From assembly GCA_964434055.1 (NCBI GenBank), contig CAYSSY010000001.1:5094-69093 (forward strand): 64,000 nt of DNA, written 5' to 3'. Numbering within the stretch: position 1 is the stretch's first letter; each line of letters starts with the position of its first letter. Made by a program: the position numbers and the translations under genes. This document shows positions 18,687-28,166 of this stretch, one piece after another. The DNA comes from an uncultured Gammaproteobacteria bacterium (lineage in GTDB: Bacteria > Patescibacteriota > Patescibacteriia > UBA2196 > CAYSSY01). A model generated the notes under the pieces. That model worked only from the letters and a program-made list of their open reading frames with translations, did not search any database and was not told the DNA's origin.

Positions 18687-18761
18687 GGTCCCTTCGTCTA
18701 ACGGTTAGGACATCAGGTTTTCATCCTGAAAATAGGGGTTCGATTCCCCTAGGGACTACCA
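18687..18761 (+). tRNA. tRNA-Glu (anticodon TTC), CCA encoded
   Basis: Acceptor GGTCCCT/AGGGACT, anticodon loop TTTTCAT, T-loop TTCGATT. A terminator hairpin follows at 18767-18796. Confidence 0.85.
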
Positions 18762-22603: not shown

Positions 22604-23080
22604 ATGGCCACAAAATTTTTCAACAAACTTATTGGCTTACAAGATAATAATGACGACGAAATAATAGATAAAAGCCAGGAAGAAAAAAAGACAGCAAATG
22701 AAGATTTGCCACTGGCTCCTAAAAATTCGGCTTGGCCAGCTACTGATGAAGAAGGTCAATTATCAGTTGATGTTTACCAAACTGAAAATTCTTTGATTAT
22801 CAAATCGACAATTGCTGGTGTTAAGCCTGAAGATCTAGATATTGCCATCAATAATGACATGGTCACCATAAAAGGCGAACGCAAACACGAAAAGGAAATC
22901 AAAGAGAGTGATTATTTCTATCAGGAATGCTACTGGGGCAGTTTTTCTAGATCGATTATTCTGCCAATGGAAGTTGTAGCAGATGAAGCTGATGCTTCCT
23001 TAAAAAATGGTGTTTTAACTATAACTTTACCTAAGGCAAGAAAAAGTCAGTCAGTTGCAATCAAGATAAAAACAGATTAA
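22604..23080 (+). CDS. Hsp20/alpha-crystallin family small heat-shock protein
   Basis: SVDVYQTENSLIIKSTIAGVKPEDLDIAINNDMVTIKGER...NGVLTITLPK. Promoter TTGTCT-N17-TATAAT at 22514-22542. Confidence 0.85.
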   Translation: MATKFFNKLIGLQDNNDDEIIDKSQEEKKTANEDLPLAPKNSAWPATDEEGQLSVDVYQTENSLIIKSTIAGVKPEDLDIAINNDMVTIKGERKHEKEIKESDYFYQECYWGSFSRSIILPMEVVADEADASLKNGVLTITLPKARKSQSVAIKIKTD

Positions 23081-23087
23081 TAAAATT

Positions 23088-23318
23088 ATGAATGAAGTTA
23101 TAAATTATCTTAAAGTTACCCTAGACCGTTTCGAGGGTAAAGATGCTATTCTGATTTCTGAATCAGGGCAACAATTTAATTGGCCTTTAAAAAATCTGCC
23201 AGATGACGCCAAAGAAGGCGATCAATTCCATCTAATACTGGCTAACTCGGAATCAGAAAAAGAAGAAAAGGAAAAAAAAGCTAAGGCTCTCCTTAATGAA
23301 ATTTTAAAAAATGAATAG
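23088..23318 (+). CDS. DUF3006-family small protein
   Basis: VTLDRFEGKDAILISESGQQFNWPLKNLPDDAKEGDQF pattern. Confidence 0.5.
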   Translation: MNEVINYLKVTLDRFEGKDAILISESGQQFNWPLKNLPDDAKEGDQFHLILANSESEKEEKEKKAKALLNEILKNE

Positions 23319-25196
23319 ATGCCAACTTTAAAAATTAAAACGGTCACCGAGCATAATAAAAAAAACAATGTTGCATTAGTGGCAACTGTTTTTTTGATAT
23401 TTTTTTTACTCACAACGGTCGGTTTTAATCTGGTCTATGATTTAATTTTTAAAAACAAAGTTTATTCACAGATTATGATAGGCGATTGGGATTTGGGTGG
23501 TCAATCAAGTCAGGTCGCTCTCGATATTTTAGAACAAAAAACAGGCACACTAAAAAATAATGGTTTTAGTTTACAAGTTAACAATGAAAAAAAAATCACT
23601 ATTTTACCGATTGTCTCTTCACTCTCAGACCCTGACTTAAGTTATGAATTAATTAGTTTCCAAAACAAAGAAACCATTGATCATGCCTACAATCAAGGCC
23701 GAAGCAATAATCTAATAACTAATTATCTTTTCAAAATCAAATCACTTTTTGTACCAACACCAATAACACTTATTTATCAAATAGATAGACAAAAATTATT
23801 AACTATAATTAGAAGCAGTCTTGAATCCCAAAAAAAACCAGCTCAAAATGCGACTATCAAATTCATTGGCGATGAAATAGTAATTTTGCCGGAGGAACAA
23901 GGCACAATTTTTGATTACGAACAAGTATTAAAAGAAATTGAACTACGCCTAAAAAACCTAACTAATCAACCAATAAATATATTGGCTCAGGTCGATTTAC
24001 CTAAAGTAAAACAACAAGAGGCTCAAAACTTAATTCCGGCTATTAAACAGATAATGAACACTTCAACACCAGTACTTTATTTTAATACTGCTGCAGACGG
24101 TCAAAAAGAAAAAAAGTTAACTTGGGCAATATCTTTAGCTGAAATAAAAAAATGGCTGGTTTTTGATAAATTAGATAGCAATGATGTTATTTTAAACTTT
24201 AATTCAGAATTGGCAATTGATTTTTTTACACCAATCAGTCAAGAAGTAAATCTACCAGTTCAAGAAGCAAAATTCGAAGTTAATAACGGCCGGGTAACAA
24301 AGTTCCAGACTTCGCGTGACGGACGAGAACTTGATCTGGAAAAAACATTAGAAAAATTACGCCATGATTATCTGATTAGTAATAAAAAAGAAGTTGAGTT
24401 GGTAATTAAAAGCACAAAATCAAAAATTACTACAGTTAGTGATATTAATGATTTGGGGATTAGCGAAATTATTGGTATCGGAAGATCAAATTTTGCCGGT
24501 TCACCAAAAAATAGGAGACACAATATAAAAACAGGGGCAGAGAGTATAAATGGGCTATTGATCAAACCAGAAGAAGAATTCTCGCTAAATAAAGCTTTGG
24601 GGAACATCGACGCTTCAACGGGTTATCTGCCGGAATTAGTTATAAAAGGAGATCGCACTATACCTGAGTACGGAGGTGGTTTGTGTCAAATCGGCACCAC
24701 CATGTTTCGAGCAGCTCTTGATAGTGGCTTACCAATAACTGAAAGAAAAAATCATTCTTATCGTGTCAGATATTACGAACCGGCTGGCACTGATGCTACT
24801 ATTTATTCACCTCATCCCGATTTGCGTTTTATGAATGACACAAAAAATTATTTACTTCTACAGACAAAAATCGAGGGCGATGATCTTATTTTTGAGCTCT
24901 GGGGACAAAACGATGGACGACATGCAACCACGACCCCTTCTAAAATATATAATTTCATTGCCCCGCCTCCGAGCAAAACAATCGAAACTGAAGATCTAAA
25001 ACCGGGTGAAAAAAAATGCACCGAACACGCGATTACTGGTGCCACCGCTGAATTTACCTACACCATTAACTATCCAGACGGAAGAAAGATAGAAAATATT
25101 TTTAAAAGCGTCTACCGACCGTGGCAAGAGGTTTGTCTAATCGGCATTGACCCAACAAAAAAAGTTGCCACCACTACTTCAGAAACTATCCCCTAA
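23319..25196 (+). CDS. VanW-family protein (N-terminal TM anchor, C-terminal VanW domain)
   Basis: GGGLCQIGTTMFRAALDSGLPITERKNHSYRVRYYEPAGTDATIY matches the VanW core. Confidence 0.75.
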   Translation: MPTLKIKTVTEHNKKNNVALVATVFLIFFLLTTVGFNLVYDLIFKNKVYSQIMIGDWDLGGQSSQVALDILEQKTGTLKNNGFSLQVNNEKKITILPIVSSLSDPDLSYELISFQNKETIDHAYNQGRSNNLITNYLFKIKSLFVPTPITLIYQIDRQKLLTIIRSSLESQKKPAQNATIKFIGDEIVILPEEQGTIFDYEQVLKEIELRLKNLTNQPINILAQVDLPKVKQQEAQNLIPAIKQIMNTSTPVLYFNTAADGQKEKKLTWAISLAEIKKWLVFDKLDSNDVILNFNSELAIDFFTPISQEVNLPVQEAKFEVNNGRVTKFQTSRDGRELDLEKTLEKLRHDYLISNKKEVELVIKSTKSKITTVSDINDLGISEIIGIGRSNFAGSPKNRRHNIKTGAESINGLLIKPEEEFSLNKALGNIDASTGYLPELVIKGDRTIPEYGGGLCQIGTTMFRAALDSGLPITERKNHSYRVRYYEPAGTDATIYSPHPDLRFMNDTKNYLLLQTKIEGDDLIFELWGQNDGRHATTTPSKIYNFIAPPPSKTIETEDLKPGEKKCTEHAITGATAEFTYTINYPDGRKIENIFKSVYRPWQEVCLIGIDPTKKVATTTSETIP

Positions 25197-25339
25197 AAAA
25201 ATAACCCCAGATTACTCTGGGGTTTAATTTTCTACTCTAACCTTTAGGCGATATTTTAAGTTTATAGGGAAACTTTTAGGGAATTGATGTTAGTTTTATT
25301 TCTAATAATTTAGAATTAAAAAGCTAACTTAATTTAAAA

Positions 25340-25490
25340 GGTCGAGTTTCTCGCCTAAAGGTTAGAACCGAAAATTATCCCGGTGAGTCTGCAGGCAAGA
25401 AAACCTTTATACAGGCATAATCGAGGTAAAACCCAGATAAGCCTAACAAAGGTCCCCATGCTCGTCGTGCCTGCAGACTAACCAGGATAA
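25340..25490. ncRNA. Candidate structured RNA / GC-rich element of unknown class in an AT-rich intergenic spacer
   Basis: A 12-bp inverted repeat GAGTCTGCAGGC (25385-96) / GCCTGCAGACT (25469-79) encloses nested helices ACCTTT/AAAGGT and CAGGC/GCCT. The local GC is about 50%. No ORF. Confidence 0.25.
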
Positions 25491-25650
25491 TGAACAAATC
25501 CATAAAAATTAAAAAAATAGCTTTAATTAGCTAAAATATTTCAATTTCAAAGTTTAACAAATAACTATAGCACTCTGGTTAATTCTTGTCAAGATTAGAT
25601 AAAAATATTAAAATAAAAAGATAAAAAATAATTAAAATAAATCTGACATT

Positions 25651-27048
25651 ATGGCAACAAAAGAATCAAGACTTCTCTTTAATAGACCGAATTTTTGGGA
25701 AGAAGCTAATCCAAAGACAATAAAAGAGGCCTTTAGTTTTTCTGAAAACTACAAAAATTTTCTTAATAATGCCAAAACAGAAAAACAGGTTATAAATGAA
25801 TGTATAAAAAGTGCTTTAAAAAAGGGGTTTAAAATATCTGAACTAAACATCCCATCAGCAAATGCTCGGGATAATAAAAAATTTATTTTTATTAATCGCA
25901 ATAAAAGTGCTATATTTGTTTCTCTCGGCAAGAAAAAACTCGTCAGCGGTGCTAATTTTATTATTGCTCACGTCGATGCGCCACATCTCGACCTAAAAGT
26001 TAGACCACTTTATGAAGATAGCGGTATTGCTTATTTTAAACCTCATTATTACGGTGGTATAAAAAAATATCATTGGCCAGCAATACCTCTTAGTCTTCAT
26101 GGCACTGTTATTTTAAAAAATGGCCAAGAGATAGAAATTAATATCGGTAACAAAGATAACGATCAAATATTTGTTATATCCGATTTACTTCCCCATTTGG
26201 ATAGTGACCGTCTTGATCGCCCTCTAAATAAAGCAGTCGAGGCAGAAGACCTAAATATCATTGTCGGCTCGATACCTGTTAAAAATAAAAAAATAAAGAC
26301 TCGTGTAAAACTAACGGTACTGGAATGGTTAAACAAGAATTATCAGATGGACGAGGAAGATCTATTTACGGCTGACTTAAGATTTGTACCAGCTTGGTCA
26401 GCTAAAGATGTTGGTTTTGATCGTAGTTTAGTAGCCAGTTATGGTCAAGACGACCGAGCATGTGTTTATACTGGTTTCCAAGCTTTTCTTGACGCAAAAA
26501 ACGAACAACAAACAAAAATATGTTATCTTGTTGATAAAGAAGAGATCGGCAGTGTTGGCACAACCAGTGCAGATTCTAATTTTTTAGAAAATTCGATTGA
26601 ACATTTAATTAGCCTGACAAATAGCTCCTTGAGTGTTAATGATTTTTTGCGACTTTCACAAGGTGTTTCCGCTGATACAACAGCAGCCTTTGATCCTGAT
26701 TATAAAAGTGTCTATGATCCTCACAATTCAATCCATTTAGGTAAAGGTGTGGCGATTGAAAAATATCTTGGTCGGGGCGGTAAATATTTTACCATTGAAG
26801 CAGAACCAATATTTATCAGAAAAATTCTAAATATTTTCAAAAAAAATAATATCATTTGGCAAACCGGCCATTTAGGGAAAGTTGACCAAGGTGGCGGTGG
26901 CTCTATCGCTGGTTATTTAGCAAGACGTAATATGGAAATAGTTGACATGGGACCACCACTTCTAAATCTACACTCACCTTGTGAATTGTCATCAAAAGCA
27001 GACATTTACTCAGCATATAGAGCTTATAAGGTTTTCATGGAAAATTAA
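25651..27048 (+). CDS. M18-family aminopeptidase
   Basis: IIAHVDAPHLDLKV (cf. the HTDSP motif) and a length of 465 aa. Terminator at 27058-27092. Confidence 0.65.
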   Translation: MATKESRLLFNRPNFWEEANPKTIKEAFSFSENYKNFLNNAKTEKQVINECIKSALKKGFKISELNIPSANARDNKKFIFINRNKSAIFVSLGKKKLVSGANFIIAHVDAPHLDLKVRPLYEDSGIAYFKPHYYGGIKKYHWPAIPLSLHGTVILKNGQEIEINIGNKDNDQIFVISDLLPHLDSDRLDRPLNKAVEAEDLNIIVGSIPVKNKKIKTRVKLTVLEWLNKNYQMDEEDLFTADLRFVPAWSAKDVGFDRSLVASYGQDDRACVYTGFQAFLDAKNEQQTKICYLVDKEEIGSVGTTSADSNFLENSIEHLISLTNSSLSVNDFLRLSQGVSADTTAAFDPDYKSVYDPHNSIHLGKGVAIEKYLGRGGKYFTIEAEPIFIRKILNIFKKNNIIWQTGHLGKVDQGGGGSIAGYLARRNMEIVDMGPPLLNLHSPCELSSKADIYSAYRAYKVFMEN

Positions 27049-27143
27049 TAATTATAAAACCGCTTCTACTTACAAGAAAAGCGGTTTTTTAATTGCCAAA
27101 AACTGTTTAATAATGGTAAAATTTACTTATAAAATTTGAATTT

Positions 27144-28166
27144 ATGACTAACAACCGCCTAATTACTTCCCGGGAAAAACCGGAAGATAAAGTACTTGAT
27201 CAAACTTTAAGACCGCACTCGCTCGATGACTTTATTGGACAGAATAAAATTAAACAAAATTTAGAGATTCTAATTCAAGCTGCTAAAAATCGCCGAGAGG
27301 CTTTAGATCATATTCTGATTTATGGCTCACCGGGTCTAGGAAAAACAAGTCTCGCTCATATTATTGCTCATGAAATCGGAAGTAATATAAAGATTACATC
27401 GGGCCCGGCCATTGAACGTGCTGGCGACCTGGCGGCTATTTTAACCAATATGGAACAAGGTGATGTTTTATTTATTGATGAATTACATCGCCTTAACCGC
27501 ACTATTGAAGAAATACTTTATCCAGCCATGGAAGATTATGCTCTAGATATAGTTATTGGTAAGGGTCCATCAGCCAGAACTCTAAGACTTGATTTGCCTC
27601 ACTTCACTTTGATTGGTGCGACAACTCGTTTAAGTCTTCTCTCTTCTCCACTACGTAATCGCTTTGGTTCAACTTACCGAGTTGATTATTACACTGAGGA
27701 AGAAATTAAAAATATTATTTTACGTTCAGCTAAAATTTTAGGAGTAAAATTCGACCATGATTCGGCTTTAGAAATTGCCAAAAGATCAAGAAAAACACCG
27801 CGTGTAGCCAACCGACTTTTAAAAAGAGTGCGTGATTATGCCCAGGTTAAAGCTGATGGTAATATTAATCAAAAAACATGTGTGCAAGCTCTGGAAATGC
27901 TTGAAGTTGATGAATTGGGTCTTGATGAAATTGATCGCCGTATATTAACAGCTATTATTGAAAAATTTTCTGGTGGTCCAGTAGGCTTAAACACCTTGGC
28001 GGCAGCGGTTTCTGAAGAGACATCAACTCTAGAAGATATCTATGAACCTTTTTTGATGCAACTCGGTTTTATGGCTAGAACTCCCCGAGGCCGAATCGCC
28101 ACGGAATCAGCCTATCAACACTTAAAATTAGCACTCCCTAGTGGCACAATAAAAAAGATGTTCTAA
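27144..28166 (+). CDS. ruvB: Holliday junction branch migration helicase RuvB
   Basis: [19 protein letters not shown]...[20 protein letters not shown]...DELHRL. Confidence 0.9.

Follow-up and report, generated by a model that had tools for sequence, protein, structure and literature searches.

A very probable gene for a stand-alone structured small RNA of an uncatalogued family in candidate phyla of the Parcubacteria group

A 64,000-nt stretch of DNA from an uncultured patescibacterial genome (contig CAYSSY010000001.1 of GCA_964434055.1, positions 5,094 to 69,093; hereafter the window) carries a GC-rich inverted repeat between a VanW-like gene and an M18 aminopeptidase gene. An original prediction, made from the letters of the window, had marked it as a candidate noncoding RNA (ncRNA) or a miniature inverted-repeat transposable element (MITE). 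We conclude that the minus strand from 25557 to 25196 is, with high probability, the gene of a stand-alone structured small RNA (sRNA) belonging to an uncatalogued family. The hairpin structure at the core of this RNA is secure, and the RNA is encoded on the minus strand. The family occurs once per locus in bacteria of the candidate phyla radiation (CPR) that belong to the 'Parcubacteria group' of the NCBI taxonomy. The ncRNA reading of the original prediction is supported by orthologous conservation, heavy covariation, a conserved promoter and terminator of the element's own, and the lack of a matching Rfam family.

The hairpin, its relatives and its strand

The spacer between the two genes is 454 bp long and has 30% GC. 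The interval 25340-25490 has a GC content of 47.0%, compared with a window average of 34% and with 28.7% and 17.6% in the remaining spacer to its left and right, so that the GC-rich island is real and the earlier figure of about 50% was slightly generous. The folding energy of the 171 nt around the element is −58.1 kcal/mol (z −7.3) for the plus strand and −71.1 kcal/mol (z −7.2) for the minus strand, and none of 200 shuffles was as good in either case, confirming a structured element in an AT-rich spacer. Its inverted-repeat arms, 25374-25400 and 25465-25491, are 27 nt long and 89% complementary. The 12-bp repeat first described as terminal does exist, but its 12-mer GAGTCTGCAGGC (25385-25396) pairs with 25469-25480 at 11 of 12 positions, with one mismatch, and lies in the middle of these longer arms. 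The nested helices ACCTTT/AAAGGT and CAGGC/GCCT that had been proposed fall within the minimum-free-energy fold, although the RNA strand is their complement. The flanks ccggtga and taaccagg, which had been read as possible marks of an insertion, are the continuation of stem P1 (25374-25384 with 25481-25491).

The start of the interval first marked, 25340, takes in about 30 nt of a separate 3′ domain. The interval is also not the extent of the unit, because the predicted primary transcript is larger, running from about 25557 to 25196 on the minus strand and folding with −128.2 kcal/mol (z −11.3). The covariance model of the family matches the window at 25371-25494. The parts of the hairpin are as follows.

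25374 to 25491, minus strand: RNA core hairpin, 118 nt (covariance model, fold and covariation)
25481-25491 with 25374-25384, minus strand: helix P1 (fold)
25480 with 25385, minus strand: 1x1 U.C mismatch (fold)
25468-25479 with 25386-25397, minus strand: helix P2 (fold)
25467-25458, minus strand: unpaired 10-nt bulge CGACGAGCAU
25398, minus strand: single bulged U opposite the 10-nt bulge
25446-25457 with 25399-25410, minus strand: helix P3 (fold)
25420-25445, minus strand: distal stems and apex (fold)
25453 to 25468, minus strand: most conserved segment, ACGACGAGCAUGGGGA, the same in the window and in the four genomes reached through the aminopeptidase

Relatives of the RNA were reached by three routes. 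The closest relatives of the aminopeptidase are 60-63% identical and come from Candidatus Kuenenbacteria and other metagenome-assembled genomes of Patescibacteria. When the spacer was compared by blastn with 80 aminopeptidase loci, four of them (L005, L007, L008 and L031) proved to share with it a core of about 72 nt with 75-77% identity, which lies 150-300 nt upstream of the aminopeptidase gene. A second sample was drawn through VanW homologues 42-45% identical to that of the window, whose best other homologue is no closer than 47% identity. This sample comprised six loci (Kerfeldbacteria, Komeilibacteria, Veblenbacteria, 'Parcubacteria' and two more), and five of them carry the RNA, always convergent with VanW and scoring 51-76 bits. 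Third, a metagenome scan for the invariant 16-mer plus CTCG returned at least 120 contigs, at least 23 of which are AT-rich and carry the same hairpin, while the other contigs among the matches listed are chance matches in GC-rich coding DNA. Orthologues at the same position are therefore known from Kuenen-, Kerfeld-, Komeili- and Veblenbacteria in addition to at least 23 metagenome contigs, and 26 distinct sequences were analysed.

These sequences share one architecture. Read from 5′ to 3′, P1 (6-17 bp) is followed by a 1x1 mismatch of pyrimidines and by P2 (10-12 bp). Then come a bulge of 10 nt facing one U, P3 (8-12 bp, beginning with a G-C pair and then G.U pairs), a small internal loop, a distal stem and a variable apical loop. 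The core is 120-135 nt long, with about 22-28 bp in P1 plus P2 and about 25 bp in P3-P4, and in 26/26 sequences the central loop has 10 nt on one side and 1 nt on the other. Among the ten sequences retrieved independently of the RNA's own sequence, the bulge is CGACGAGCAU in five and CGACAAGCAU, that of the five VanW-route genomes, in the other five, giving the consensus CGACRAGCAU. The A-U and G-C pairs that close the bulge are invariant in 10/10 of these sequences, and the 3′ strand reads UCUU throughout. The motif A-[CGACRAGCAU]-GG / UC-[U]-U stays unchanged while the surrounding helices vary. For P2, Kuenenbacteria have CUCCAAGAGA/UCUCUUGGAG, the window has GUCUGCAGGC/GCCUGCAGAC and L247 has CUGUGGAC/GUCCACAG.

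In the window, GGGGA (25457-25453) pairs with UUUUC (25403-25399), including three G.U pairs. The second and third G.U pairs of P3 become G-C or A-U in single members (G-C in L243 and L247), showing that P3 is genuinely helical and that conservation of the 16-mer is strong but not absolute. Farther out, the AGG/CCU and GG/CU pairs of the distal stem are invariant. The apical loops range from 6 to about 20 nt (UUUCGA, UUUUUAA, UCUUUGA, GUUCUC, CUCCGG, and inserts of up to about 20 nt), and the apex carries possible extra small stems in L123, L194, L197 and L244.

Compensatory changes occur in 23 of the 39 pairs of the RNAalifold structure. A model-based alignment of 21 sequences (A5) has 95.1% of its cells paired and 25/39 pairs changed on both sides. 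An alignment of the ten sequences retrieved through proteins only (A6) has 93.8% of its cells paired and 28/39 pairs changed on both sides. In both cases 0/500 shuffles reach the result, and the slid controls are 41-58% (A5) and 41-55% (A6) paired, these alignments being fitted to the model, which favours pairing. In addition, each of the four aminopeptidase-route relatives folds individually into the same hairpin. The effect size, the slid controls and these independent single-sequence folds together make the structure secure.

A pseudoknot of the bulge with the leader, the tail or the apex was considered and rejected. No complement of the bulge that is consistent across the members was found in any of them. 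A CGAG/CUCG match between bulge and apex is invariant; it is part of the search pattern, and its two halves are about 25 bp apart along a stiff helix.

Five properties identify the minus strand as the RNA strand: the better fold, the upstream promoter, the better T run, the score of the family model and a natural variant. The 118-nt hairpin folds with −61.9 kcal/mol on the minus strand and −48.5 kcal/mol on the plus strand, a gap of 13 kcal/mol, and the 7 G.U pairs among its 47 pairs turn into A.C on the plus strand. The family covariance model (R1) gives the minus strand 104.1 bits (E 4e-25) and the plus strand 27.5 bits. In L002, which belongs to the same species but was assembled from a different sample, a single base of the element differs (window position 25381, plus-strand C replaced by T), and a G.U pair of P1 thereby becomes A-U in the minus-strand RNA. 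In L008 and L031 the T run of the terminator beside the element is present only on the RNA strand. A plus-strand RNA, for which promoter and terminators would also lie the wrong way round, was rejected.

The same results bear on whether the element is a MITE, another repeat or a chance palindrome. A long inverted repeat in AT-rich intergenic DNA, with a second repeat nearby (25235-25251 / 25351-25367), has the look of such an element. However, the window holds a single copy, as judged by a 12-mer pattern, blastn and the covariance model, and there is no target-site duplication, the flanks pairing as P1. The site is orthologous, in the same syntenic position, in at least four candidate phyla, the covariation extends to 28/39 pairs, the G.U pairs are asymmetric between strands, and the promoter is conserved. 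A phage or mobile origin was also tested; among 38 viral contigs with the 16-mer, none carries the RNA. The MITE or repeat reading is thus refuted for the hairpin, and we consider the chance of it, or of a chance palindrome, next to negligible; the latter is contradicted by conservation and covariation in the relatives.

The gene and its neighbours

The remaining parts of the putative gene and the two flanking genes are the following.

25564 to 25592, minus strand: promoter of the RNA gene, −35 TTGACA (25592-25587), 17-nt spacer ending in TG, −10 TATAGT (25569-25564)
25495 to 25557, minus strand: 5′ leader, an AT-rich hairpin (25505-25548) with inner stem UAGCU/AGCUA, then a U run (fold of the predicted transcript)
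25227 to 25375, minus strand: extra 3′ domain, a 17-bp perfect stem (25351-25367/25235-25251) and a 6-bp stem (25370-25375/25227-25232) enclosing about 99 nt of AT-rich sequence
25196 to 25224, minus strand: intrinsic terminator, stem 25224-25203 (9 bp, 5 G-C), then AUUUUUUU
25586 to 25614, plus strand: divergent promoter of the M18 aminopeptidase and RuvB, TTGTCA-17-TAAAAT, its −35 overlapping that of the RNA promoter
23319 to 25196, plus strand: VanW-like gene (Pfam VanW and PG_binding_4)
25651 to 27048, plus strand: M18 aminopeptidase gene

In a consensus scan, the promoter of the RNA gene has 11/12 consensus matches and a TG ahead of the −10, with a predicted transcription start near 25557. 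The pattern TTGACA-N17(16 in one)-TGnTAnnnT is found 61-217 nt upstream of the bulge in 24/24 loci examined. With the terminators or U runs, the covariation and the lack of a conserved reading frame, the generic features of a stand-alone sRNA are present.

The leaders vary in length across the members. An AT-rich palindrome and U run similar to those of the window are present in the leaders of L007, L135, L138, L150, L191 and L244, and distant members use nearly identical words for it (UUAGCUAA..UUAGCUAA). This palindrome looks like a weak terminator, an attenuator or a protein-binding DNA palindrome.

The terminator that the original prediction gave to VanW does end that gene, but it is bidirectional and predicted to end the minus-strand RNA as well; a scan of both strands found the better T run on the minus strand (ATTTTTTT, compared with TAATTTTCTA on the plus strand). 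The species of the window is unusual in that about 150 nt separate the hairpin from the terminator, whereas other members terminate directly after the hairpin. Relatives have an intrinsic terminator downstream, or instead, in L244, L246 and L247, a U run directly 3′ of the hairpin. In these three loci (L244 6011-6144, L246 5937-6064 and L247 6379-6499, all minus strands), 5-7 U follow straight after the long hairpin, which suggests that it probably acts as its own intrinsic terminator and that the mature RNA would extend little beyond it.

The 3′ domain that fills the additional 150 nt is identical in the same-species contigs L001 and L002 and absent from all other members, and it has no second copy in the window. 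Its 5′ arm (GGUUCUAACCUUUAGGCGA) resembles the 3′ tail GGUAACCC(U/A)AGGCAA of L123 and L194. It may have arisen by inverted duplication or as a small insertion, and this second repeat, unlike the hairpin, may be a mobile or repeat element. A 15-mer of this second inverted repeat is matched, apart from two positions, by the D arm of a tRNA-Glu gene (18687-18761), which is no more than chance would produce.

On the other side of the RNA gene, both divergent −35 elements (TTGACA on the minus strand, TTGTCA on the plus strand) occupy one palindrome, cTTGTCAAg, at window 25586-25592. This palindrome is kept in the Kuenenbacteria loci (L005, L006, L007, L008 and L031), about 80-110 nt upstream of the aminopeptidase start. 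The two promoters, lying back to back, may compete for RNA polymerase.

The genes beside the RNA vary. The M18 aminopeptidase is divergent from it in 10 loci and RuvB in L123, L243 and L245, while VanW is convergent in at least 10 loci and UvrA in L135, L138 and L197. In the unrelated contigs L124 and L150, a gene for a type II/IV secretion ATPase (T2SSE), the RNA and DnaG follow one another on the same strand, and a terminator separates the RNA from dnaG. Because the neighbours vary among loci, a trans-acting stand-alone gene is favoured over a leader, a riboswitch or an element of a 3′ untranslated region (UTR).

A cis element of a neighbouring gene would be either a plus-strand terminator or 3′-UTR of VanW, or a leader or riboswitch for the minus-strand gene downstream. 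The position just downstream of VanW in at least 10 loci fits the former. However, VanW already ends at a terminator of its own, which lies 150 nt upstream of the hairpin. A plus-strand element would carry A.C mismatches, would be the strand that scores 27 rather than 104 bits and has no T run after the hairpin, and the RNA is present without VanW in L124, L135, L138, L150 and L197. As for a leader or riboswitch, a gene does follow on the same strand in a few loci (DnaG in L124 and L150, an open reading frame (ORF) without a Pfam match in L107), but the next gene is convergent in most loci, the window included. The same-strand genes are mutually unrelated (DnaG, the ORF without a Pfam match, and others) and are usually set off by a terminator, L107 being the exception. 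A cis element is thus very unlikely, and the riboswitch or cis leader was rejected in favour of the stand-alone gene.

Beyond the immediate neighbours, the order HSP20, DUF3006, VanW, convergent RNA, divergent (M18 aminopeptidase) RuvB is found in the window (22604-28166) and in L243-L247; the aminopeptidase takes part in it only in the Kuenenbacteria-like subset and in the window. This gene order, shared by Kuenen-, Kerfeld-, Komeili- and Veblenbacteria, reflects synteny inherited within a single clade, with nothing in it that suggests a functional link. Kuenenbacteria and Komeilibacteria are separate candidate phyla within the Parcubacteria group of the Patescibacteria group in the NCBI taxonomy. 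The UvrA adjoining the RNA in L197 is 66-70% identical to proteins of Komeili-, Uhr- and Kerfeldbacteria, placing the UvrA-linked members in the same broad clade. In Falkowbacteria and other more distant Patescibacteria, the covariance model found no copy within 4 kb of the aminopeptidase gene.

Identity tests and proposed function

The RNA family and its bulge motif match no Rfam 15 family, although stand-alone structured sRNAs of bacteria are a familiar kind of object. At gathering thresholds Rfam 15 found only 11 tRNA genes in the window, the same number as ARAGORN, and only rRNA and tRNA in 32 homologous loci. With E up to 10, the region 25150-25700 gave only far-sub-threshold matches to plant miRNA and terminator-type families, and with E up to 5, five loci gave no match on the hairpin. 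Signal recognition particle (SRP) RNA, 6S RNA, RNase P RNA, ribozymes and riboswitches thus have no Rfam match at the thresholds tried. For a tRNA-like RNA or a transfer-messenger RNA (tmRNA) ARAGORN was negative, with no tmRNA in the window, and Rfam gave no tmRNA match. These scans agree with the original prediction, which had matched the element to no tRNA-like RNA, tmRNA, SRP RNA or riboswitch core. An apparent likeness between the apex UUCUGGUUUCGAC and the 5′ portion of tmRNA disappears once the variable apex of other members is taken into account.

A small protein is no better a candidate. The 42-aa minus-strand ORF at 25503-25375 is not kept in length or sequence among relatives, and the frames that begin at the conserved AUG of the bulge have 5-34 codons and unrelated sequences. 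In the literature, a search that did not cover subscription journals found no paper with the conserved sequence or on CPR RNA classes, so that a prior description is possible.

The mechanism that we propose is as follows. A near-consensus sigma-70 promoter with an extended −10 would drive the RNA gene, and transcription would end at the bidirectional terminator that the gene shares with convergent VanW or, in relatives, at the terminator or U run after the hairpin. The functional core would be the hairpin of about 120 nt, 25491-25374, and the RNA would act in trans. Two long helices of the RNA, which covary freely and make about two helical turns each, would form a rigid scaffold. The scaffold would present the purine-rich 10-nt bulge CGACRAGCAU against a single U, with an A-U pair bounding the bulge on one side and G-C and G.U pairs on the other. 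The bulge would then be the recognition platform for a conserved protein, either in a housekeeping-type ribonucleoprotein or in a protein-titrating RNA. Recognition by a conserved protein or machine is suggested by the combination of covarying helices, a fixed bulge and a consensus promoter in genomes of about 1 Mb. We prefer a protein platform to a simple antisense seed because both strands of the motif are fixed, its paired nucleotides included, and because the apex varies. We hold the platform itself tentatively, at somewhat less than an even chance. For the explanation as a whole, gene plus platform, our judgement is evenly balanced, a compromise between our confidence in the gene and that in the platform.

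Several points weigh against this explanation. We infer transcription from the consensus of promoter and terminator only. No protein partner is encoded next to the RNA gene, and an exposed, invariant single strand of 10 nt is also what a base-pairing seed looks like. The metagenome members were selected by the 16-mer, which makes its invariance among them circular, and only 10 sequences are free of selection by the RNA's own sequence. Furthermore, the taxonomic range was sampled rather than surveyed, and the RNA may be a very divergent substitute for SRP RNA or 6S RNA.

A more specific version of the protein-platform reading, possible but less probable than the platform in general, is that the RNA belongs to a previously unrecognised housekeeping ribonucleoprotein specific to one large clade of CPR bacteria, abundant, kept in genomes of about 1 Mb and supplementing or replacing one of the few small RNAs that are nearly universal in bacteria, for example 6S RNA. 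The partner of the bulge would then be a conserved machine of the cell, for example RNA polymerase, the ribosome or a processing enzyme. If true, either as a 6S substitute or as a new ribonucleoprotein, this would bear on how transcription or translation is organised in reduced cells.

CPR bacteria, or Patescibacteria, make up a large part of bacterial diversity; most of them are uncultured, and few regulators have been recognised in their very small genomes. To our knowledge, almost nothing has been described of their ncRNAs beyond rRNA, tRNA and introns. The RNA is kept across candidate phyla, has a consensus promoter in all the members examined, and has an invariant motif where the proteins of its neighbours are 42-63% identical. 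These features suggest that it is an important and probably abundant component of the cell. The covariance model makes it possible to annotate a gene whose place appears as 'empty' intergenic DNA in the output of current pipelines, and the hairpin is small enough for direct biochemistry.

Comparison with known RNAs and repeats

SRP RNA of the small bacterial type is capped by a GNRA tetraloop, with the conserved symmetric and 4:1 asymmetric loops of domain IV alongside. The present RNA resembles such a 4.5S RNA in being one long irregular hairpin of about 115-130 nt, encoded by a single-copy stand-alone gene with a strong promoter, and in having an asymmetric internal loop with a long 5′ side and one nucleotide on its 3′ side. 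No canonical SRP RNA was seen in about 0.4 Mb of RNA-carrying genomes; neither ffs nor ffh was found there, but this is too little sequence for the absence to count. In contrast to 4.5S RNA, the hairpin has no GNRA tetraloop, its apical loops being variable, and no conserved symmetric loop of the domain IV type beside the apex. Its conserved bulge has 10 nt rather than the 4 of SRP RNA and lies about 25 bp from the apex. The Rfam scans, taken to include SRP models, gave no match at E up to 10. A very divergent SRP RNA is thus a slender possibility, slightly below even that of a cis element.

6S RNA (ssrS) consists of a closing stem, a large central bubble open on both strands, an internal stem and a terminal loop, measures 150-200 nt, and shows poor sequence conservation; homology models easily miss it. 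A functional analogue would be a rod-like RNA that binds the RNA polymerase holoenzyme by DNA mimicry, with the bulge and the weak G.U pairs as its 'open' region. The overall plan is similar: the closing stem has 22-28 bp, a central loop follows, and an internal stem of about 25 bp leads to the terminal loop. So are the low sequence conservation outside the centre and the promoter signals, which look like those of a housekeeping gene with high expression. In most members the loop adjoins three weak G.U pairs in a row, and 6S RNA is missing from the Rfam scans of the window and of homologous loci. However, the central loop is one-sided, in contrast to a bubble open on both strands, the core is shorter than 150-200 nt, and the centre is invariant on both strands. 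The scans, taken to include 6S models, found nothing at E up to 10, and the changes from G.U to G-C in L243 and L247 strengthen the helix rather than keeping it easy to melt. We regard a 6S analogue as quite unlikely, though less so than an SRP RNA.

A base-pairing sRNA is the most probable of these alternatives, albeit still an unlikely one. Its seed would be the bulge CGACRAGCAU, perhaps together with GGGG, and its targets would be AUGCUYGUCG-like sites in mRNA, in which the AUG lies inside the site and translation initiation would be blocked. Like Hfq-independent trans-acting seed sRNAs, the RNA has its own promoter, an intrinsic terminator and a conserved unpaired stretch of about 10 nt. 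Moreover, the complement of the bulge contains AUG, and the G/A alternation at bulge position 5 is compatible with a target U. In contrast to such sRNAs, the seed would sit in an internal bulge of a rigid, near-perfect duplex rather than in an apical loop or 5′ tail, and the paired flanks on both strands, which a seed would not need, are equally invariant. Among 61 gene starts in the window, the best interaction has −17.3 kcal/mol, which 14.5% of shuffled seeds equal. Elsewhere in the window, sites within three mismatches do not exceed chance, and the 16S and 23S rRNA of relatives hold no significant complement. These target tests, being limited to the 64 kb and the rRNAs of relatives, have little power.

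Returning to the stand-alone RNA of an uncatalogued family, which we favour, its nearest parallel in kind is the orphan structured RNA motifs that surveys of the Breaker laboratory (e.g., PMC11109978, PMC8632094) obtained through a GC-rich-intergenic-region approach. A search of one of these papers (PMC11109978) for mentions of CPR, 6S or SRP found none. Like those motifs, the present RNA is a GC-rich structured island in AT-rich intergenic DNA, supported by covariation and not assigned a function; unlike them, it finds no match in Rfam 15, which is taken to include published motifs. With MITEs and REP-like repeats, finally, it shares the long intergenic inverted repeat, whereas it differs from them in being a single copy at a fixed orthologous site, with compensatory changes that follow the G.U asymmetry and with a promoter of its own.

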